In this document: piece by piece, positions 2,710-58,266 of the stretch
Position numbering within the stretch: the stretch's first letter is position 1
How the letters are laid out: each line of letters begins with the position of its first letter
Assembly: GCF_963921235.1 (NCBI RefSeq)
Contig: NC_086097.1
Coordinates: forward strand, 5,208,001-5,272,000
Reading direction: 5' to 3'
Length of the DNA: 64,000 nucleotides
DNA from: Mobula hypostoma
Taxonomy: Eukaryota
Notes under the pieces: model-generated
Told to the model about the DNA's origin: nothing
Database searches by the model: none
The model's input: only the letters and a program-made list of their open reading frames with translations
Translations under genes and position numbers: made by a program

Positions 2710-5700
2710 AACAGTCACAATGTGCTGGAGGAACTCAGCACGTCAGTCAGCATCAGTTGAAAAGATTAGTCGACGCTTCAGGCCGAAACCCTTCGTCAGG
2801 ACTGAAGGAAGAACTTTGGGGAGGGTTTGAAGAATGCTGGTAGTTGAAAAAAACAGCAATTTGAAAGACAGAGGGGTGGGGGAGGGGAAGCAGGGAGGTG
2901 ATTGGCAGGAGAACAATGCGAAGTAGTAGAAGGAGGCGGAACTATGAGGGAGGTGATGTGAAATAGGTATAGAGGAAGGGAGGGGGAGGGAATTACCGGA
3001 AGTTGGAGAATTCTATGTTCATACCAAGGGGCTGGAGACTACCTGGACGGTATATTGGTGAATTGGTTAGCAGACAGGAAGCAAAGAGTGGGAATAAACG
3101 GGACCTTTTCAGAATGGCAGGCGGTGACTAGTGGGGTACCGCAAGGCTCAGTGCTGGGACCCCAGTTGTTTACAATATATATTAATGACTTGGATGAGGG
3201 AATTAAATGCAGCATCTCCAAGTTTGCGGATGACACGAAGCTGGGTGGCAGTGTTAGCAGTGAGGAGGATGCTAAGAGGATGCAGGGTGACTTGGATAGG
3301 TTGGGTGAGTGGGCAAACTCATGGCAGATGCAATTTAATGTGGATAAATGTGAAGTTATCCACTTTGGTGGCAAAAATAGGAAAACAGATTATTATCTGA
3401 ATGGTGGCCGATTAGGAAAAGGGGAGGTGCAACGAGACCTGGGTGTCATTATACACCAGTCATTGAAAGTGGGCATGCAGGTACAGCAGGCGGTGAAAAA
3501 GGCGAACGGTATGCTGGCATTTATAGCGAGAGGATTCGAGTACAGGAGCAGGGAGGTACTACTGCAGTTGTACAAGGCCTTGGTGAGACCACACCTGGAG
3601 TATTGTGTGCAGTTTTGGTCCCCTAATCTGAGGAAAGACATCTTTGCCATAGAGGGAGTACAAAGAAGGTTCACCAGATTGATTCCTGGGATCGCAGGTC
3701 TTTCATATGAAGAAAGACTGGATGAACTGGGCTTGTACTCGTTGGAATTTAGAAGATTGAGGGGGGATCTGATTGAAACGTATAAGATCCTAAAGGGATT
3801 GGACAGGCTAGATGCAGGAAGATTGTTCCCGATGTTGGGGAGGTCTAGAACGAGGGGTCACAGTTTGAGGATAGAGGGGAAGCCTTTTAGGACCGAGGTT
3901 AGGAAAAACTTCTTCACACAGAGAGTGGTGAATCTGTGGAATTCTCTGCCACAGCAAACTGTTGAGGCCAGTTCATTAGCTATGTTTAAAAGGAAGTTAG
4001 ATATGGCCCTTGTGGCTACAGGGGTCAGGGGGTATGGAGGGAAGGCTGGGTTCTGAGTTGGATGATCAGCCATGATCATAATAAATGGCGGTGCAGGCTC
4101 GAAGGGCCGAATGGCCTACTCCTGCACCTATTTTCTATGTTTCTATGTTTCTATGTTTCTATATGAGGTGTTGTTCCTCCAACCTGAGTTTAGCCTCATC
4201 ATGGCAGTAGAGGAGGCCATGTATGGACATATCTGAATGGGAATGGGAAGCAGAATTGAAGTGGGTGGCTACCGGGAGATCCTGTCTGTTGTGGCGGACA
4301 GAGTGGAGGTGCTCGACGAAGCGGTCCCCCAAGCTGCGTCGGGTTTCACCGATGTAGATGAGGCCGCACCGGGAGCACCGGATGCAATAGATGACCCCAA
4401 CAGATTTGCAGGTGAAGTGTTGCCTCACCTGGAAGGACTGTTTGGGGCCCTGAATGGTGGCAAGAGAGGAGGTGTAGGGACAGGTGTAGCACTTACGCTT
4501 ACAGGGATAAGTGCCGGGTGGGAGATCCGTGGGGATGGACATGCGGATAAGTGAGTCGTGGAGGGATCGATCCCTGCGGAAAGCGAAGAGGGGTGGAGAG
4601 GGAAAGATGTGCTTAGTGGTGGGGTCCTGTTGAAGGTGGCGGAAGTTGTGGAGGATAACGTGTTGGATCCGGAGGCTGGTGGGGTGGTAGGTGAGGACAA
4701 GGGGAACTCTGTCCCTGTTGTGGTGGCGGGAGGATGGGGTGAGGGCCAAAGTGCGGGAAATGGAGGAGATGCGGGTGAGGGCATCATTGATCACTGTAGA
4801 AGGGAAACCATGATCCTTAAAGAAAGGGGACATTTGAGATGTCCTGGAACGGAAAGCCTCATCCTGGGAGCAGATGTGGTGGAGATGGAGGAACTGGGAA
4901 TAGGGAATGGCATTTTTGCATGTGGCTGGGTGGGAAGAGGTATAATCGAGGTGGTTATGAGAGTCAGTGGGCTTGTAGAAGATGTCAGTGGACAGTCTGT
5001 CTCCAGAGATGGAGACCGAGACATCGAGAAAGGGGAGAGAAGTGTCAGAGATAGACCAAGTGAATTTGAGGGCTGGGTGGAAGTTTGAAGTAAAGTCGAT
5101 GAAATTGACGAGCTCAGCATGGGTGCAGGAAGCAGCACCAATGTAGTCGTCAATGTATCGAAGGAAAAGTTGGGGAGACGTACCAGAATAGGTTTGGAGC
5201 ACAGACTGTTCCACATAACCAACGAAGAGGCAGGCGTAGCTGGGTCCCATGCAAGTTCCCATAGCTACACCCTTAGTCTGAAGAAAGTGGGAAGAGCCAA
5301 AAGAGAAGTTATTAAGTGTGAGAACCAGTTCCGCCAACCGGAGGAGGGTAGTGGTGGTGGGGAACTGGTGAGGTCTATTGTCCAGGTAGTAGCAGAGGGC
5401 TTTGAGGCCTTCTTGATGGGGAATGGAGGTGTATAAGGATTGGACATCCATAGTAAAAATGAAGCGGTTGGGACCAGGGAACTGGAAGTTATTGAAGAGG
5501 TGGAAGGCATGGGATGTATCCCGGATGTAGGTGGGGAGGGACTGAACTATGGGTGACACAATGGAGTCCAGGTAGGCAGATACAAGTTTGGTGGGACAGG
5601 AGCAGGCAGAAACTATGGGTCTACCGGGACAGTCAGGCTTGTGTATCTTGGGGAGGAGGTAAAACCGAGCGGTACAGGGTGTGGGAATAATGAGTTTAGC

Positions 5701-6740
5701 GGCTGAGGATGGAAGGTCTCCGGAGTTGATAAGGGCAGTGACGGTACAGGAGACAATGGTTTGATGTTTTTTGGTGGGGTTCTGTTCCAGGGGTAAGCAA
5801 GAGGAAGTGTCAGAGAGCTGCCGTTTGGCCTCAGTGTCGTAGAGGTCCGTCTGCCAGACTACTATAGCACCACCTTTGTCAGCGGGTTTGATGGTGAGGT
5901 TGGGATTAGTGCGGAGAGAGGGAGGGCAGTGTGTTCAGAGGGAGTGAGGTTGGAACAGGAGAGAGGAGTGGTGAAGTTGAGACAGTTGATGTCTCGGTGA
6001 CAGTTGGAGATGAAGAGATCGAGTGCAGTAAGAAGGCCCGTGCGGGGTGTCCAGGAGGAGGAGGAGGGTTGAAGACAGGAGAAGGGGTCATCAGTAGGGG
6101 GAGGGGAATCCTTGCCAAAGAAGTAGGCTCGGAGACATAGGCGACGGAAGAAGAGTTCAGCGTCACGGCGGGCTCAGAACTCACTGAGGTGTGGTCGGAG
6201 GGGAAACAAAAGTGAGGCCCTTGCTAAAGACAGAACGTTATGCCTCAGAGAGGGAAAGGTCAGAGGGGATGGTGAAGACATGGCAATGTTTGGGGCTGGG
6301 GTTGGAGAAGGGTGAAGAGTGGGAGGTCTCAGGAGGGAGAGGAGGGTTGGGATGTTCAGGGAGAGCGGGATTAGGGGAGGATGAGGAATCAGAGGAATGG
6401 ATGGACGATGAGGGGTAGAGGGATGTTTGGGAGTCGATGGGAGGAAAGAGGGTAGTGGGGGAATAGGATAGGCGGTGGGACCCAGCAGCAGTAAGAGCGG
6501 TTCCAGTTTGGAGAGTTTCAGGACCTCCGTAGGAGCTGGATCCTAAACTTGGCGTGGCGGAGACTGTATCCTGCAGTGCCCCAGAACTGAGGTCGGAGTC
6601 GGAAACGAATGAGTTCATGGCTCGTCGGGGGCTGGTTCCCCTTTTCGGGAGGCGGTGGTTCCAGTCAGGGTCAGAACCAGAGGCGGAGGGTCTCCGGCCT
6701 GCTGAAGGACTGAGAAGTCGAGGTCCGAGGGGTTTCGGTC
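2710..6740 (-). mobile_element. Penelope-like element (Neptune-like, Cys-rich linker), long arm, interrupted by CR1 at 3056-4160
   Basis: N-terminal SKGLTFVP, then KPADKGGAIVVW. RT motifs TMDVQSLYTSI, GVAMGT and LRYIDD; CYTCP linker; GIY-YIG motif VIY...YIGET (ORF 4159..5559). The C-terminus resumes at 3055-2993. Confidence 0.92.
3056..4160 (+). mobile_element. Young 5'-truncated CR1 LINE
   Basis: Uninterrupted 333-aa ORF with GVPQGSVLGP, KFADDTK and LVRPHLEYC; (CTATGTTT)n tail; flanked by (T)ATAT target duplication at 3051-3055 and 4160-4164. Confidence 0.95.
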
Positions 6741-8192
6741 CGGCTACGCCTGCCTCTTCGTTGGTTACGTGGAACAGTCTGTGCTCCAAACCTATTCTGG
6801 TACTGCTCCCCAACTTTTCCTTCGATACATTGACGACTACATTGGTGCTGCTTCCTGCACCAATGTAGTCGTCAATTTCATTGACTTTACTTCAAACTTC
6901 CACCCAGCCCTCAAATTCACTTGGTCTATCTCGGACACTTCTCTCCCCTTTCTCGGTGTCTCGGTCTCCATCTCTGGAGACAGACTGTCCACTGACATAT
7001 TCTACAAGCCCACTGACTCTCATAACTACCTCGACTATACCTCTTCCCACCCCGCCACATGCAAAAATGCCATTCCCTATTCCCAGTTCCTCCATCTCCA
7101 CCTTATCTGCTCCCAGGATGAGGCTTTCCATTCCAGGACATCTCAAATGAACCCTTTCTTTAAGGATCATGGTTTCCTTTCTACGGTGATCAATGATGCC
7201 CTCACCCGCATTTCCTCCATTTTCCGCACTTCGGCCCTCACCCCATCTTCCCGCCATCACAACAGGGACAGAGTTCCCCTTGTCCTCACCTACCACCCCA
7301 CCAGCCTCCGGATCCAGCACATTATCCTCCGCAACTTCCGCCACCTTCATCAGGACCCCACCACTAAGCACATCTTTCCCTCTCCACCCCTCTCCGCTTT
7401 CCACAGGGATCGATCCCTCCGCGACTCACTTATCTGCACGTCCATCCCCACGGATCTCCCACCCGGCACTTATCCCTGTAAGCGTAAGTGCTACACCTGT
7501 CCCTACACCTCCTCTCTTGCCACCATTCAGGGCCCCAAACAGTCCTTCCAGATGAGGCAACACTTCACTTGTAAATCTGTTGGGGTCATCTATTGCATCC
7601 GGTGCTCCTGGTGCGGCCTCCTCTACATCGGTGAAACCCGACGCAGCTTGGGGGACCGCTTTGTCGAGCACCTCCACTCCGTCCGCCACAACAGACAGGA
7701 TCTCCCGGTAGCCAGCCACTTCAACTCTGCTTCCCACTCCCATTCAGATATGCCCAAACATGGCCTCCTCTACTGCCATGATGAGGCTAAACTTAGGTTG
7801 GAGAAGCAACACCTCATATACCGTCTAGGTAGTCTCCAGCCCCTTGGTATGAACATAGAATTCTCCGACTTCCAGTAATTCCCTCCCCCTCCCTTCCTCT
7901 GTCCCTATTTCACATCATCTCCCTCATAGTCCCGCCTCCTTTTACTACTTCGCATTGTTCTCCTGCCAATTACCTCCCTGCTTCCCCTCCCTGACCCCTT
8001 TGTCTTTCAAATTACTGTTTTTTCCAACTACCAGCATTCTTCAAACCCTCCCCAAAGTTCTTCCTTCAGTCCTGACGAAGGGTTTCAGCCCAAAACGTTG
8101 ACTAATCTTTTCAACTGATGCTGACTGACCTGCCGAGTTCCTCCAGTGCATTGTGAGTGTTCCTTTAACAACAGCATCTGCAGATTATTTAG
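6741..8192 (+). mobile_element. Penelope-like element, inverted short arm (RT C-half, GIY-YIG, 3' end)
   Basis: ORF 6769..7878 closely matches ORF 4159..5559 in the opposite orientation. The two-arm unit is flanked by a 14-bp TSD TGTTAGAATGGAGG (2696-2709, 8193-8206). Confidence 0.92.
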
Positions 8193-17049: not shown

Positions 17050-17566
17050 AGATTAATTAGATTTGAATATTGATATCCACAGAGGAATGCGCTGACTGGG
17101 ACATTCCAGGCTGTGGAGTACTGTACCTGCTGAGCGACACACTGAGGCTTGAGGCCACCAGTACAAGGCTCTGGGGAAAGGACCACAGTGTAGGGTTTTT
17201 TCCTGCTGGAGAGTAGTGGGCTGGGTTGGAGGAGGAAGACCCTCAATTACTGCGATAGCATATACCACAGTGGCAGCAGTGCTAGTGATGTGTGTGAATG
17301 GAATAGAACAGGGCACAAAACAAAGACAAAAAGGCATTGCACCGTTTAGTTTTGTAAATAATTTTTTATGCTGACAAAAACTGGTACAGAAAACATAGAC
17401 ATTAACAAACTGAGAGCTTGTTAAGAGCCATGTCCAAGTTCAAGGAGAATAATGTTGTTCTCTTTGAACTTAGACAAGGCTCTTAACAAGCTGGGTTGTA
17501 GAGGCACTGCACCAGTTGCCTCCATCTCTCACGATTGTGGGCGAGTGCCTGGTTACGGCAAAGCTC

Positions 17567-17832
17567 TCTCCGTTCCACTCTGCAATGCTGTCTGCCCATT
17601 TCCTCCCCTGCCTTCCGTCCTCTCCGTTCCACTCTACAATGCTGTCTGCCCATTTCCTCCCCTGCCTTCCGCTCTCTCCGTTCCACTCTACAATGCTGTC
17701 TGCCCATTTCCTCCCCTGCCTTCCGCTCTCTCCGTTCCACTCTACAATGCTGTCTGCCCATTTCCTCCTCTGTCTGCCACTCTCCGTTCCACTCTACAAT
17801 GCTGTCTGCCCATTTCCTCCTCTGTCTGCCGC
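17567..17832. repeat. Minisatellite, about 5 copies of a 54-bp unit
   Basis: Unit CTCTCCGTTCCACTCTACAATGCTGTCTGCCCATTTCCTCCCCTGCCTTCCGCT; last copies slightly shorter. It abuts an RTE-like 3' end on the minus strand (AHNRERWRQLVQCL). Confidence 0.9.
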
Positions 17833-18319
17833 TTTTTCGTTTCAACTGCACAATAATACAGAGCAATACATAATAAAAGAACTAGAAATTATAACAAGGA
17901 ATATATCAACTAAAAATTAAATTAAATAAGTTGTGTAAAACGAGAACAAAATAAGAAAACAAATAGTAAGGTATGTTCATGAGCTTATTGTTCATTCAGA
18001 AATCTGATAGCGGAGGGAAGAAACTGTTTCTGAAATGATGAGTGTGTGTCTTCAGGCTCCTGTGCCTTCTCCTTCATGGTAGCAATGGGAAGAGGGCACT
18101 TCTCGGGTGATGGGGGTCCTTCATTACAGACGCCACCTTTCTGAGGCACTGCCTTTTGAAGAAGTCCGTGATGCTGGGGAGGTGAGTGCCCAGGATGGAG
18201 CTGGCTGCAGCTACTTGTATGAGTTCACCACTTCACCATCACCACCAGTTTGGATGTAGGAGCCCATTGTGACTGTAGAAATAGCCAGGAGTGAACCAAA
18301 ATGACCAAGCCCAATGCTT

Positions 18320-23530: not shown

Positions 23531-25675
23531 AAGTTTAGATGGTGGGGTAGAGAAACTTAAGGATTTGTAGCAGCAGTACAGTACATTGCATAAAATTATC
23601 ATAACACAAAAATAATTAAATGGTGTAAAAGAGAAATCGTAAGGCAGTGAACATGGATTCGTAGATGCAGCCTGGCCTGCAGAGTTCCTCCAGCATTTTG
23701 TATGTGTTGCTCGCCTTACCCAGTGTGATGTGTGATGGAAATGAACTTTACCCTCTTCTGAATCTTCTTGCTCTTCATTTGCTTCGATTTTGTAGTCAGC
23801 GAGCAAAGGAATTAAAGGAAACTTTAATTTTCCCTCCTGAGTGGGTTATATCCGGTAGAACACAGGGCTATTTGAGTTGTAAATGCGGGGTAATTATTCA
23901 CAATTAGCACACATCAAATCAATGTGTGTGTGTTTTTCTCAGTAGTCCTTTGCATCCCAATTAACTCTATGTGGTATAAAAATAATCAAGTGGAATATTA
24001 AATGCGTCCATCCAATTTAAACCGTCTAGTAGGTGAGAATACTTGACCTCTCAACAAGATGGTCTAACTTTCAATCCATGTTAAAATAAACAAGTGAGCC
24101 AAAGACGGTTCAGCACTGACTGGATGGGCTGAAGGACCTGTTTATGTGCTGCACTTTGACTCTGTGAGACTATGACTCTACGTTATAGCAAATTCTGCTC
24201 CAGAAAGTGCAAACATTATATTTCAGGAAATAATGTATTAAAATTGGAAAGGAATTCCACTCTTAAAAAAAAAGCTCAGGACTGCCAGGGATGAAGGTGT
24301 AGTTAGCAAAAATTTCCTGTAGTTGTGTGATTTTTAAGGTGCTTTTAAAATGTCACAAATTCTGGACACGCTCCGATACAGTGGCTGCTCTGTGACCAAT
24401 CAAAGGTGTAATTGTTCATCCTTCACATCTTTTTCAAAGTAGCAAGGTACGTTTGTATATTAAAAACATGAAGAACTGTGGGTCTATCCCATTGTCGAGT
24501 TGCTCGATAGCGCGGGAGCTAGGCTTGAGCTGAGGCCTGCTGCAGAAACTCAAGGAGGAAGGCCTCAGAGGTGATGTGGGGAGGCTGTACACAGTGCAAC
24601 AAACAGTGCAAATGATTGTATTTTTGTGTTCCGTTGAATGACAATTAAACTTGAACCTGAAATTGACTTGATGGTCTTTTTGAATGACCTTAAAACAGTA
24701 CACTGTGTCAAAATAATGAGACGATAGAAGGTGAAGTTGTGACTCCTTGTAGCCCAGGGAAATGTAAGAGAGGCGGATAAAAAGAGATAATATCACTCCT
24801 GTTTATTAGTCAATAGACTGGTGTGGGAAGTTCCTGGGGAGTTTCTAATTATCTTACCAGCAGGATCCCTGACAAAACAGCATAATTGGCAGAATTCACA
24901 ACATGTCTTTGGGGCTTCCTCCAATCAAGTGTCTCAGTTACAGCTGGAGAATGGGGAATTCCCTGCTGAATTTATAGTCTACTCCATTTGCAGTTGGCAG
25001 ATGTCCAGTGAAAGACTGTTTAACTAAGTAGCAAGTATAAAGCACTGGTAATGTATTCAAGAACCAAAGATGCTATGTAAAATACCCCTTGACATTTGTA
25101 CCCCAGAATAATAATTCTATCTATGAAATGTATCAATGCCTCTCATAATCTTATAAACTTCCATCAGGTCTTTGTTAGCCTCAGAAGTTCCAGATTAATC
25201 AATCCAAGTTTCTCCAATTTATACCATTGAGTCTAGGCAGCATCCTAATAAATATCTTCCACAATGTTTTCAAAGCCCCCACACCCTTCCCGTAATGTAA
25301 GAAAGCAAGATATTTATATGAAGCTGGAATGAAGAATGTAGCTTAGCAGGTAGCAAATGCCATTACGGCTTGGGGCATGGAGTTCAGAGTTCAATTCTGG
25401 TGTCTTCTGTAAGGAGTCTGTATGTCCTCCCCATTGAATGCGTGGGTTTTCTCTGGATCATACTGATTATGGGCACCAATCCATTCACTGATATATTCTC
25501 CATTTGGCCTTCAATGGTCCGATCTACGTGCAACGTTGAACTGAACTAAACTGAATACTACTGGACTCTTGGTCGGATGTTCAATATTCTCTGTGTTCTC
25601 CACTTGCTTTTTGCCATTTGTGCAATTTGTTCTTTTCTCGTGAGTTAGGTGTTTGAAGTTTTCTTGAATAGGTTC

Positions 25676-25985
25676 TGTGCCATATAGCCTACATTATAAT
25701 AAGGGACTACTTTATGTTCAAAGCCAAGATTGGACTCATAAGCCACTTCAGAGCCCATAAGGAGATCAACAGAACGAAGACCATCATCCTCGACCTCAAG
25801 AGATAGCCACGATGACAACGACTTTATGTTTTAGTCACACGTCGTTGTCTGCGCTATTAGGCGCGTATTGATCTGTACGTGTGTGCTGAGTTCGGATTCG
25901 GCCGGTAAAGAACCATGAAACTTAGATCCCATCTCCAGCATTTTTATTAACAGCATTGTTGTGTAGCCAGACCACATACACAACA
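25676..25985 (+). repeat. 5' LTR (198 bp plus a 112-bp insertion)
   Basis: Aligns end to end with 29034-29231 after removing 25719-25830; about 17 substitutions by manual count. Confidence 0.93.
25719..25820 (+). mobile_element. RTE LINE extreme 3' end inserted in the 5' LTR
   Basis: Translates KAKIGLISHFRAHK, resembling the RTE C-terminal C2H2 finger end; 10-bp TSD ACTTTATGTT (25709-25718, 25821-25830); absent from the 3' LTR. Confidence 0.75.
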
Positions 25986-26359
25986 AATTGACGACGAGGT
26001 TAATGAACCTACATCGTATCGGAACGCCGTGTTTTAATTGGTAACAACACTCGGAGGAAGAGCGCAAGGAACGAGCCAAGGAGCGGGAGAAGGAGGCAGA
26101 GTGAGGCCGCGAGTCCGAAAGGAAGTGGGAGCACAGCCAGTGTCGGGAACGTCGGGAGACCAAGAGACACAATCTGAGCCACAGCACATCCAGCCGAGAC
26201 CACAGCCTGCGCTGACCCTCAGGGACTGAGGGTCTGCCTGCCCCAGAGGGGAGATAAAAAGGAGTGACACATGCATCTAGACGGAGTGGCGCTAGCAAAA
26301 AGGACATGTGAGTCAAAAAGAAAACTAGGGGAGAACGGGGCTTAATTAACATAACAAAG

Positions 26360-27550
26360 ATGGCCATGATCGGAACCATTACAGCATTTGATAGTGGCAT
26401 TGAAGACTGGGCAACTTACATTGAGAGAGTGGAGTTATAGTGTGAGGCTAGCGGTGTTAATGATGAAAAGAAAGCCAGCGTCTTACTCAGTATTATGGGA
26501 GCAAAAACATACAAGCTGCTACGGAGCTTGTTAACCCCTGAAAAGCCAGCTGACAAAACATTCAAGCAAATAGTAGACACTCTCCAACAGCATTTAAACC
26601 TCAAACCACTGGTCATTGCTGAAAGATTTAAATTTCACAATCGGAATCAAAGCAAACATGAAAGCATTTTTGGATATTGTGCTGAATTGTGCAAATTATC
26701 AGAACATTGTCAATTTGGAGCTGGTCTATCGCACGCATTGAGGGACAGGTTAGTGTGTGGCATGCACTGTGAAACCACACAGAAGAGGCTCCTGGGTGAA
26801 AAAGACCTTACATTAGAGAAGACGCTGAACATTGCAATATCAATGGAAAGAGCAGCACGGGGTGCTTCAGAGATTCAACAAAAATCTCTGGAATATGCTA
26901 TGTATAAAATGTCACTGAACAGAAATGAAGGGAAGAAATGTTACTGTTGTGAGAACAGGTCACATCACCCTGGTGACTGTTGGTTTAAAGACAAAGAATG
27001 CAGAAACTGTGGCAAACAGGGCCACACTGGCAGAGTATGCAAAGCTAGTAAACAGCAGAAAAAGGACAAAATACAGAGAAACAAGAAACCCCAGAAAGGA
27101 AAACACAACAATGTACACAAAATGGGCGAAAGCAGTTCTGATGAAAACGACTCAGATGAAAGTAAATTGTCTTGTCTGCAACTTCACAGCGTGAAAGAGA
27201 CAGATGATCAAAGAGTAATAAGGATCACTCCATAAGTGGCAGGTGTGAGACTTAAAATGGAGTTGGATACAGGCTCAGCTTTAACAGTGATCTCTGTACA
27301 TGACTACAAATGACTGTTTTCTCACATACCTCTGAAACGAACTAAACTACTGCTAAAGACTTACACAAGACAGAAAGTGCATCCCAAATGTGAAATTAAA
27401 GTGACAGTGAACTATGGAGTCAAAACACAGCAACTGAACCTCTATGTACTGAAAAATGGAGGACCACCATTGCTGGGACGTGAATGGCTCAGGAAAATCC
27501 AGTTGGATTGGCACACCATCAAGGCACTAGATGTGTTAACAAAGGAGGGC
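26360..27550 (+). pseudogene. Gypsy gag plus aspartic protease (single frame, 3 in-frame stops)
   Basis: MAMIGTITAFD..EDWATYIER, PLVIAERFKFH, LRDRLVCG, two CCHC knuckles (CYCCENRSHHPGDC, CRNCGKQGHTGRVC), protease MELDTGS and LLGREWL. Stops at 26438, 27233 and about 27311. Confidence 0.9.
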
Positions 27551-27565
27551 AGCTCGGTGGGGAAG

Positions 27566-28499
27566 ATGTCCACAGCTCTTCTCTCACCCATGGTCGACTA
27601 TTACAACGATGAGGAGGAGCTAGACAGCGTCGATGATGAGGATGAACGCAGTATCCGTGGCTGCGACTCGGATGAAGATACAGAGGATGCAAGGGAGACA
27701 GATATTGCCAATAAGCAGGATGATGAAGACTACCTGGAAGTAAAAGAACAGATGTACCGGAAAAATTGACATCTCCCAAAAGACAGCTACAGCAGTTACA
27801 GGAAGGCACTTTGCAGGAGTATCAGAAAAGGATGAAGGATCTAGATCAACAATACAAGGAAAGAATACAAAACGCAGAGCTTTTTTCTGCAACTGGAGAC
27901 AGAACAAGTGGAAAGGAATTATATTAAAGAGAAGAAAGCAGCAGTGAAGGAATTTGAAGATAAAAAGATTGAGTTAGAAGGGAAAAAAGAGGATTGAGAA
28001 TGAGAGGCTAACAATGGAACTCACAGGACACTCTATGGAGGTAAAGTTAATAATGACTAGGAAACTAAGGAGGAGACCTAATGACCCTGTTCCAATTACA
28101 GACAAAAGACGAAAACCTGCACCTGCGCAGTTAAATTACTTGTTAACAGATGAACAGATAATAGAAGATCTGAGAACTCTCAATAAGCTTAAATCTCCAA
28201 AAATACCAGCATCTCTGTCTTCTCCTGAGCATCTTCCCAGCACTCCTGCTGAATCACCAGCACAAAGATATGAAGCATGAATAGAAGATGGTAAGTTATA
28301 TTACGATTAGAGATGGTATCATAAAGGTCAGGCTATCTATTTGGAATCTAATGAGAATACAAAGATTGACTGTGTAATTAGCTCAGTTGGAACAAATGAG
28401 ATATGGGTAAGGAAGACAAGTGATAGCACAAAGATGCGTGTATATCTAGGACAGCTGCACAGAGGAGTCTTCATTATACGGAGGCGATCTGCTGCATAG
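27566..28499 (+). pseudogene. SUDS3: Intronless retrocopy of Sin3 histone deacetylase corepressor complex component SDS3
   Basis: Recognisable from start to stop: [132 protein letters not shown]. Frameshifts near 27758, 27885 and 27990, a deletion of about 24 nt, and stops at 28278 and 28308. Confidence 0.95.
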
Positions 28500-29033
28500 A
28501 ACTCTTAGCAAGTTGGAGGTGCACATCTTCTTAACTCCCTATGCTCAGAGGTCAACTTTTCATGACTTTTATGTGGAAATCTGTATTAAAACAAACAAGT
28601 TTATTGAGAGACTGAAGAACACACTATTTGAAGACACTTTCCAATGCCATCTCAGTTTTGACGATTGTACATATTTTTAAGAATAACATTCTCCTTTTCA
28701 CGGATTTCACTTTGCTTTCGTCATCTTTGTAAGATGGAGGTGACTACTCTTTATGGCTGGAACCTGCCAATTTGTGGATTGTTTAATTTATTCCAGACAA
28801 CAGACTGAAGACCTATTTGCTTCATGCCAGACAATCTAGAGAAGACCCATCCCCCCAGAGACTTGAGTTATAAATTCACCAAAAGTGAAAAAAGGGCTTG
28901 TTATAATTTGATATTATTAAGTTACTAAGTAAACAAATGGTAGGTGTTTGTACGTTAAGGGTAAACATATTTGTTTTGCATAATGCCCCAGTAAAAAAAC
29001 AGTTGATACACTATTAAAATAAAAGGGGAGGAG

Positions 29034-29231
29034 TGTACCGTATAGCCTACAGTATAATAAGGGACTACTTTATGTTTTAGTAACACGTCGTTGCTTGCGC
29101 TACTAGGCACGTATTGATCTGTACGTGTGTGCCGAGTTCGGATTCAGTGAGTAAAGAACCATGAAACTTAGCTCCCGTCTCCAGCATTTTTATTAATAGC
29201 ATTGTTGTGTAGCCAGGCCACATACACAACA
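29034..29231 (+). repeat. 3' LTR (198 bp)
   Basis: Begins TGT right after the PPT, ends ACA, followed by the GGTTC TSD. Confidence 0.93.
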
Positions 29232-30164
29232 GGTTCTATGGTGTTTCTCTGTTTTGTGGCTGCCCGTGGGAGGACAAATCTCAGAGTTGTATTCTGTATG
29301 CATACTTTGATTATAAATGTACTTTGAATCTTTGATCATTTTAACTTCCAAGTTCTGAGGAACAGATTGTAACAGATGCCACAATTGTAAAAGATTATGT
29401 GGTTGAGAATGTGGCCATACTGGGGTAATCAAACACAGTGAGACATAATGCATAAATAATAGAGCTGTGAGAATTAACTTTGTGAATATGAATATGATTA
29501 AATACATGTCTTATGAATAACTTAATGCATTTACACATCCACCATACGACATTTATGAGCTCTAGTGCTTCCTCCTGATTTCTGAACAGAACAGTAGTTG
29601 GGATAGTGATATGGATTAGAAACCAGGAAAATAACAATCAGTTTTTATTTTATTTAGAGATACAGCGTGGAACAGTCCCTTCCAGCCCAACGAGCGGCAC
29701 CACAGCGCAATTTAATCCTAGCCTAATCCCAGGACAATTACAATGGCCAATTAACCTACTGACCAGTAAGTCTTTGGAATGTGGGAGGAAAGCGGAGCTC
29801 CTGGAGGAAATCCATGTGGTAACGCGGAGAACGTACAAATTCCTTACAGAGAGTGCCAGAATTGAACTCTGAACTCCGACACCCAGAGCTGTAATAACAT
29901 TGTGCTAACCGCTCCTCTACTGTGGCAGTTTGCAACGGTCCACTTCAAGATTAAGAACTGTGACAGGCAAGGGTGAAAGGAAAACCTGGAAATCTCTTGG
30001 CTACGGCTAACAGAGGAGAGAGAGAGTATAAATCCAGTGTGAGATCAAAGGAAAAAGTGTGATTTCAATGGGAGTTACCTTAAGATAAACCTGTTGATTA
30101 TAAAACCGCTGTGGACAATTGATGAGAACCAGTTACTGCCCATGGTGCTGGAGGTTTTCTGTAG

Positions 30165-57265: not shown

Positions 57266-57321
57266 TCTTCTCTTTGTGACTGTATGATACTCTGCAGCTG
57301 TAACAAAGTATGCTATGTTTT

Positions 57322-58266
57322 AGAAACATAGAAACATAGAAACATAGAAAATAGGTGCAGGAGTAGGCCATTCGGCCCTTCGAGCCTGCACCGCCATTTA
57401 TTATGATCATGGCTGATCATCCAACTCAGAACCCAGCCTTCCCTCCATACCCCCTGACCCCTGTAGCCACAAGGGCCATATCTAACTTCCTTTTAAACAT
57501 AGCTAATGAACTGGCCTCAACAGTTTGCTGTGGCAGAGAATTCCACAGATTCACCACTCTCTGTGTGAAGAAGTTTTTCCTAACCTCGGTCCTAAAAGGC
57601 TTCCCCTCTATCCTCAAACTGTGACCCCTCGTTCTAGACCTCCCCAACATCGGGAACAATCTTCCCGCATCTAGCCTGTCCAATCCCTTTAGGATCTTAT
57701 ACGTTTCAATCAGATCCCCCCTCAATCTTCTAAATTCCAACGAGTACAAGCCCAGTTCATCCAGTCTTTCTTCATATGAAAGACCTGCCATCCCAGGAAT
57801 CAATCTGGTGAACCTTCTTTGTACTCCCTCTATGGCAAAGATGTCTTTCCTCAGATTAGGGGACCAAAACTGCACACAATACTCCAGGTGTGGTCTCACC
57901 AAGGCCTTGTACAACTGCAGTAGTACCTCCCTGCTCCTGTACTCGAATCCTCTCGCTATAAATGCCAGCATACCGTTCGCCTTTTTCACCGCCTGCTGTA
58001 CCTGCATGCCCACTTTCAATGACTGGTGTATAATGACACCCAGGTCTCGTTGCACCTCCCCTTTTCCTAATCGGCCACCATTCAGATAATAATCTGTTTT
58101 CCTATTTTTGCCACCAAAGTGGATAACTTCACATTTATCCACATTAAATTGCATCTGCCATGAGTTTGCCCACTCACCCAACCTATCCAAGTCACCCTGC
58201 ATCCTCTTAGCATCCTCCTCACTGCTAACACTGCCACCCAGCTTCGTGTCATCCGCAAACTTGGAG
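57322..58266 (-). mobile_element. Young 5'-truncated CR1, near-identical to 3056-4160
   Basis: ORF 57426..58202 differs from ORF 3055..4056 at one residue; same (CTATGTTT)n tail; GTTTT at both junctions. Confidence 0.95.

Follow-up and report, generated by a model that had tools for sequence, protein, structure and literature searches.

The 64,000-nucleotide stretch of Mobula hypostoma DNA analyzed here (NCBI RefSeq assembly GCF_963921235.1, contig NC_086097.1, positions 5,208,001 to 5,272,000 of the forward strand; hereafter the window) contains at positions 25676–29231 a long terminal repeat (LTR) element in which an intronless coding sequence (CDS) of SUDS3, the gene for the Sin3-HDAC corepressor subunit SDS3, follows gag and protease. 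The element is delimited by two direct repeats with TG...CA ends, and all of its features read on the forward strand. The 5′ LTR (25676–25985) and the 3′ LTR (29034–29231), both called by LTR alignment and blastn, align in two blocks, one of 43 nt (93%) and one of 168 nt (91%), with a blastn E-value of 2.5e-63; 18 of the 198 aligned positions are mismatched (9.1%), 13 of them by transition, giving a Kimura two-parameter distance of 0.098. The target site duplication (TSD) GGTTC, read directly and recovered at empty-site joints, flanks the element on both sides (25671–25675 and 29232–29236), and a polypurine tract (PPT) of 13 purines (29021–29033), likewise read directly, abuts the 3′ LTR. The segment between the 5′ LTR and gag (25986–26359) is by its position the untranslated leader, where the primer-binding site (PBS) is expected. 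No other copy of the element was found within the window, and ARAGORN detected no tRNA gene in it with which a PBS could be compared.

A stretch of 4.1 kb was compared with contigs of four public sequencing runs at a likeness of at least 80%: the DNA runs X1 (organism A), X5 (organism B) and X10 (organism D), and X15 (organism A), which we guess to be RNA (fitted contigs: 18,523, 16,875, 14,723 and 988 for X1, X5, X10 and X15, respectively). Runs of further organisms had word shares of 0.27–0.28 (C, E and F), 0.13 (G) and 0.10 (H), and the comparison draws on the four runs named above. Individual contig records mentioned below are examples among 32 listed of about 51,960 pieces and not totals. 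The host site of the element (25537–25675 and 29237–29335) is a very high-copy repeat (summed depth of 122,771 in X1 for bin 29236–29372), and contigs without the element pass from 25636 to 29228 with 33 intervening letters (4, 4 and 6 contigs in X1, X5 and X10, respectively) or from 25636 to 29234 with 35 intervening letters (2, 3 and 1 contigs). The length of these joints is that expected of a site holding one GGTTC. Since paralogous copies of the host repeat thus give empty sites, the insertion borders and the duplication are supported, and the borders claimed in the original prediction, which had been made from the letters of the window (LTR pair, GGTTC duplication and PPT), were borne out by direct reading, LTR alignment and empty sites. 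The 5′ LTR is interrupted by a 99-nt foreign block (25719–25817) between 10-nt direct repeats. Because the bin with this block (25674–25810) has a summed depth of 108,715 in X1, about 10 times that of the next LTR bin, the block is a piece of a far more abundant short repeat; it was inserted later than the element.

Downstream of the leader, gag and protease occupy one frame (26360–27535), assigned by homology to Gypsy polyproteins. The frame from the ATG at 26360 comprises 469 codons with three in-frame stops at codons 27, 292 and 318, and its translation contains two CCHC zinc knuckles (C-X2-C-X4-H-X4-C) and the aspartic protease motif LDTGSA, in agreement with the gag-protease that had been predicted. 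This part is 59–79% identical to Gypsy ‘K02A2.6-like’ polyproteins; used as a query, it matched 602 proteins (E ≤ 1e-3), among which P0003 (63% identity) and P0005 (79% over 269 residues) scored best. The best full-length relatives (1311–1318 amino acids, 59–62% identity over gag-protease) have protease, RVT_1, RNase H-like and integrase domains, and many full-length relatives are named ‘K02A2.6-like’ or ‘Gypsy retrotransposon integrase-like’. In Pfam, the read-through gag-protease gave sub-threshold scores for DUF7083 (19.7 bits, cut-off 27) and gag-asp_proteas (18.8 bits, cut-off 28.2), and seven stop-free fragments matched no family at E 0.01 or better. In tblastn searches of the window with eight relatives, each relative gave one strong match, which ended at 27535 in four cases, at 27553–27559 in three and, through a chance extension, at 27595 in one. 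Beyond their residue ~405, the six full-length relatives gave no match to the element (E<1), indicating that reverse transcriptase (RT), RNase H and integrase, already noted as missing in the original prediction, are absent rather than merely decayed. Judged from its sequence, the element can be classed as a non-autonomous Ty3/Gypsy derivative of the ‘K02A2.6-like’ lineage.

Two other gag-related sequences were observed. P0027, a predicted protein of 498 amino acids, consists of a related gag over its first ~300 residues (56% identical to that of the window), is cut short where the protease starts and then has an acidic stretch and C2H2 zinc fingers, which matched only generic C2H2 clusters; it may be a second chimera of gag and a host gene in the same Gypsy lineage. 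In X15, a 550-letter contig of very high depth (2,189) matches gag only over the zinc knuckles (26975–27208), diverges at 27208 and may represent a different element or a gag-derived gene.

The SUDS3 CDS (27566–28500), now a pseudogene, runs from start codon to stop codon without an intron, as called by SDS3 homology and by alignment with P0130 of Mobula birostris, of which residues 1–138 correspond to 27566–27979 and residues 149–327 to 27984–28496. The cargo matched 689 proteins at E 1e-3 or better, nearly all of the 120 matches listed being named SDS3, as well as solved SDS3 chains (7sxi_A, E 1.5e-39; 2n2h_A, E 4.2e-8). Over the last 172 codons, the best listed SDS3 proteins were those of Chiloscyllium punctatum (92%), Callorhinchus milii (91%) and Mobula birostris (88%). 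The Pfam family PF08598, which the homologues carry, was matched neither by the fragments scanned nor by the C-terminal half of SDS3. The start-to-stop, intronless CDS of the original prediction therefore stands as regards coverage but not as regards the reading frame, which is broken by four frameshifting indels near 27764, 27881, 27980 and 27983 and by premature stops at 28278 and 28308, and which is short of 8 codons that every compared orthologue has. Rows for other contigs are listed at some of the break sites: the majority differ from the window at two gag stops and at the indel near 27881, and the proportion that differ at 27980 and 27983 varies. As other contigs read differently there, the breaks at those sites look private to this copy. 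The copy in the window is dead: it has decayed and does nothing now.

Regarding the 5′ junction, the ATG of SUDS3 at 27566 lies in the gag-protease frame, and no stop codon intervenes between the end of the protease and this ATG. Homology to the element is secure up to 27535, likeness to P0123, a shark SDS3 gene model whose own leader is read in frame, begins at 27545, and P0177, a ‘SDS3-like’ protein of Mobula birostris, aligns from ten residues upstream of the SUDS3 start codon. The 18-nt zone 27536–27553, delimited by the tblastn ends and P0123, resembles both sources at the protein level. Because element homology fades there and likeness to the SDS3 leader starts, the 5′ junction can be placed within this zone, leaving a SUDS3 leader of ~20–30 nt. 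At the 3′ side, an X15 contig of 1055 letters (record 23) fits 28563–28824 and then continues with ~790 letters unlike the window, and the summed depth in X1 rises about 7-fold from bin 28688–28824 to bin 28825–28961. The departure of this contig and the depth step place the 3′ junction at 28824/5, after 324 nt of captured SUDS3 3′ untranslated region (UTR) without poly(A) (28501–28824), where about 300 bp had been proposed. As for the ‘full-length mRNA’ of the original prediction, the whole CDS is covered, but the leader is limited to ~20–30 nt and the 3′UTR ends at 28824 while the parent-like contig continues.

The segment that follows (28825–29020) is assigned to the element as its non-coding 3′ tail, with the depth step as the only basis; together with the 13-purine tract, it corresponds to the element-like segment and PPT that had been noted after SUDS3. 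Over 28825–29033, no similarity to the C-terminal pol sequences of the relatives was seen at the protein level. The runs of at least five A residues closest to 28824/5 are A6 at 28888 and A7 at 28993, with none at the junction itself, and the SUDS3 part lacks flanking direct repeats of ≥7 nt, so that the poly(A) tail and TSD named beforehand as signs of a later LINE (long interspersed nuclear element) insertion were not found at this repeat threshold. A possible poly(A) remnant at 28880–28895 behind a TATAAA motif was also considered, but was rejected because the parent-like contig departs at 28824, 60 nt earlier, with a change in depth.

The sequencing runs were then read for other copies of the SUDS3-carrying element. 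The median summed depth of nine SUDS3 bins was 10,806, 4,753 and 2,165, and that of eight gag-protease bins was 21,840, 10,164 and 5,914, whereas the single-copy flank bin 29373–29500 had depths of 13.2, 9.5 and 8.7 (X1, X5 and X10, respectively). The SUDS3 bins were thus ~820, ~500 and ~250 times deeper than the single-copy flank, ratios to be read only as ‘hundreds’, since summing the depths of contigs does not yield copy numbers. Contigs with a letter other than that of the window numbered 10–73 per single SUDS3 site in X1 and X5 and 4–44 in X10, and contigs of 196–264 letters lying entirely inside the CDS were 8–12% different (records 5, 6, 14 and 29). The 5′ junction is bridged by contigs that are also 8–12% diverged (X1 record 4, 27443–27678; X5 record 28, 27422–27633; X15 record 19, 27501–27758), and 14 contigs with one extra letter align across 28824/5 (X1, 9; X5, 3; X10, 2). 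Many diverged copies share both junctions, in at least two related organisms. The element appears to belong to a non-autonomous family that multiplied many times with its SUDS3 cargo. The mobilised family suggested in the original prediction is supported by diverged contigs that cover SUDS3 and bridge both junctions in runs of three organisms, and further by family-specific changes common to two annotated Mobula ‘SDS3-like’ proteins.

These changes are an 8-residue gap and three substitutions, which occur in each of the three family members compared, namely the window, P0161 of Mobula hypostoma (321 amino acids) and P0177 of Mobula birostris (480 amino acids), and in none of four cartilaginous-fish SDS3 orthologues (P0130, P0197, P0123 and P0124). 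At the DNA level, none of the contigs over 27975–27978 in X1, X5 and X10 has the extra letters of the parent-like X15 contig. As the gap and the substitutions are shared by the family sequences and missing from the orthologues, the comparison points to one founder for the SUDS3-carrying copies. In X15, most of the SUDS3 part has one contig per site and the flank bin is uncovered; our guess is that this run is RNA and that its contigs are the parental SUDS3 transcript. The window differs from these parent-like contigs at 50 of 1,108 letters (4.5%), which is half of the LTR–LTR divergence of 9.1% and indicates that capture and insertion were close in time. Other copies are 8–12% different from the window, and the data fit a single burst soon after capture. 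The flank of the window copy is spanned by an organism B contig (record 30) with 3 differences in 219 letters and by an X1 contig (record 8) with none; because organism B has the same flank, the burst is probably older than the split of organisms A and B. From the LTR distance we would infer an age of ~20–100 million years, with rates assumed to be 0.5–2.5e-9 per site per year.

The architecture of the element matches the capture during LTR reverse transcription that had been proposed originally: the LTRs and both internal ends are kept, pol is replaced and not interrupted, and the cargo, intronless and with a truncated 3′UTR, is accompanied by neither a poly(A) tail nor a separate duplication. 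We consider it highly probable that a Ty3/Gypsy element had its pol replaced by a spliced SUDS3 cDNA and was then amplified as a non-autonomous family. In such a course, the RT–RNase H–integrase part (~900 codons in relatives) would have been replaced by ~1.28 kb of spliced SUDS3 cDNA in a chimera that arose once, inside a virus-like particle. Template switching, which we infer, would have occurred first from the 3′ tail of the element RNA into the SUDS3 3′UTR of a co-packaged mRNA, and a second time from the SUDS3 leader, just 5′ of the start codon, back to the element at the protease/RT border. With its LTRs, leader, gag-protease, polypurine tract and tail retained, the chimera could have been copied in trans by the enzymes of autonomous relatives and have multiplied in a single burst. 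A Gag-protease-SDS3 fusion would have been encoded by the founder. The window copy inserted into another repeat and then decayed.

Besides the limit on the depth ratios given above, several points weigh against this view. The switch points are bracketed (27536–27553 and 28824/5) rather than mapped at the nucleotide level, and no TGG-initiated stretch complementary to a tRNA lies within ~50 nt of 25985, beside the 5′ LTR. X1 may be the sample from which the window was assembled, and if X15 is DNA, its ‘parent-like’ contigs are another intronless copy and not the parent. The depth of bin 28688–28824 is much lower than that of the other SUDS3 bins (1,886, 683 and 103 for X1, X5 and X10, respectively), indicating that many copies differ or are deleted there, and, with 32 of ~51,960 pieces listed, some of the SUDS3 copies may lie outside LTR elements. 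Lastly, no gag-protease-SDS3 fusion protein was present among the 120 listed of 602 and the 120 listed of 689 protein matches; P0014, with 98% coverage, was examined as a candidate fusion and rejected as a chance alignment via an acidic stretch.

Of the other routes, the one that survives best is capture in the style of a viral oncogene, where an element near or in SUDS3 would have had its protease end fused to exon 1 by deletion or read-through, followed by splicing and one 3′ switch. This would account for a 5′ junction that lies in the 5′UTR a few tens of nucleotides before the start codon and in frame, and it resembles the Gag-Onc fusions of transforming retroviruses. Nothing in the window tells it from a double switch; nevertheless, we regard it as unlikely, since it needs an extra rare event, namely an insertion beside SUDS3 together with a deletion. 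In the accessible part of PMC5131818, a double switch is documented for 25 of 29 Drosophila junctions, although similarity-independent routes such as transduction also exist. Far less probable is that a LINE-made processed pseudogene of SUDS3 inserted into a master copy of the element, with pol deleted later and the damaged element then amplified. LINE reverse transcriptases do occur in the window, and a preprint credits, in its accessible part, non-LTR machinery for vertebrate retrocopies generally (10.64898/2026.06.26.734816); however, such an insertion is contradicted by the missing poly(A) at 28824/5 and the missing flanking repeat of 7 nt or more, by a 3′UTR that is truncated where the parent-like contig continues for ~790 letters, and by a 5′ end in frame with the protease with no pol remnant on either side. 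That both joins are artefacts of collapsed repeats in the assembly is scarcely credible even in a repeat-rich region and with X1 possibly from the same sample as the window, given that the 5′ junction is bridged by 8–12% diverged contigs from other loci and from another organism's run, that 14 contigs from three runs align across the 3′ junction, and that in P0177, an annotated protein of Mobula birostris, the same leader is continuous and in frame with SDS3.

The SUDS3 cargo was most likely a passenger. It is conceivable but rather improbable that the Gag-protease-SDS3 fusion of the founder, whose 8-residue gap lies in the coiled-coil part, acted as a decoy in Sin3-HDAC assembly, or that hundreds of SUDS3-bearing copies coupled the host's silencing of the element by small RNAs with that of an essential corepressor gene. 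If true, repression would be blunted, which could explain why this element, although it lacks pol, accounts for approximately one third to one half of the sequence mass of its family. In a wider and likewise improbable form of this view, the odd genes that head the retrocopy lists of cartilaginous fishes would be transposon cargo and not the products of independent retropositions.

Acutely transforming retroviruses, in which replication genes are replaced by spliced host cDNA in frame with gag, are helper-dependent, and the maize element Bs1 is low-copy. Unlike Gag-Onc retroviruses, the element described here belongs to a germline retrotransposon family without env, its cargo is a corepressor and not a growth gene, and there is no sign of a cellular phenotype. 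Oncogene capture via RT template switching is cited in the part of Tan et al. (2016, PMC5131818) available to us, which also describes the double template-switch model and the hallmarks of LTR-mediated retrocopies: a partial intronless mRNA that replaces the internal open reading frame (ORF), both LTRs, the lack of a poly(A) tail and of a duplication, and the potential to be retroposed again. Like the animal LTR-mediated retrocopies covered in that part, the SUDS3 element has an intronless, 3′-truncated cDNA in place of part of the ORF, retains its LTRs and carries a cargo without poly(A) or duplication. Those retrocopies are mostly single, young and partial, whereas here a whole CDS in frame with gag-protease is found at high copy number in related species. 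Junction microsimilarity is a key hallmark of the cases in PMC5131818, and the SUDS3 element is assigned by the other hallmarks. Bs1, according to the available text of PMC13317346, contains fragments of three plant genes, none of them full-length. Bs1 and the SUDS3 element are both non-autonomous LTR elements with transduced host sequence inside and a hybrid ORF (accessible parts of PMC13317346 and PMC5131818). The SUDS3 element differs in carrying one complete animal CDS and in being abundant. The human HERV-K/FAM8A1 chimera is likewise a vertebrate LTR element with a captured host mRNA that became a processed pseudogene; as far as PMC5131818 was accessible, it is a single untranscribed locus, whereas the SUDS3 element is an amplified family. 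LTR-mediated gene capture is a known mechanism, and what sets this case apart is the complete in-frame CDS, the high copy number in vertebrates and the Sin3-HDAC subunit as cargo; no description of a SUDS3-carrying LTR element was found in the literature searched.

SUDS3 is among the five most retrocopied parent genes of cartilaginous fishes in a survey of 244 genomes (bioRxiv 10.64898/2026.06.26.734816). In its accessible part, this preprint reads such rankings as a bias of germline expression followed by selective retention and discusses retrocopies via non-LTR elements, with no LTR carrier named there. The element offers a mechanism for the high rank of SUDS3. If most copies descend from one LTR-borne capture, the count would be a product of transposon amplification rather than of recurrent retroposition or of retention. 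The same check is merited by the remaining top-ranked parents in the preprint, MIPOL1, SDF2L1, SLU7 and ZNF276. The element is also an unusually clean vertebrate case of LTR-mediated capture, in which a complete host CDS was joined to gag-protease in a highly successful non-autonomous family, and its cargo, a subunit of a chromatin-silencing complex, makes it a natural system in which to ask whether captured genes help transposons.

The surroundings of the element are rich in transposons, with several reverse-transcriptase ORFs, one of them with a GIY-YIG domain. This ORF (4162–5934, reverse strand) lies within a 95% inverted pair (4160–5111 and 6869–7820), and the combination of reverse transcriptase and GIY-YIG is typical of Penelope-like elements. 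An inverted repeat of 946 nt with 100% complementarity (3216–4161 and 57321–58266), whose arms are 53 kb apart and whose left arm overlaps an RT-domain ORF, may represent a pair of very young transposons or a duplication introduced by the assembly. Lastly, a tandem array with a 54-nt period and about seven units was observed at 17509–17884.

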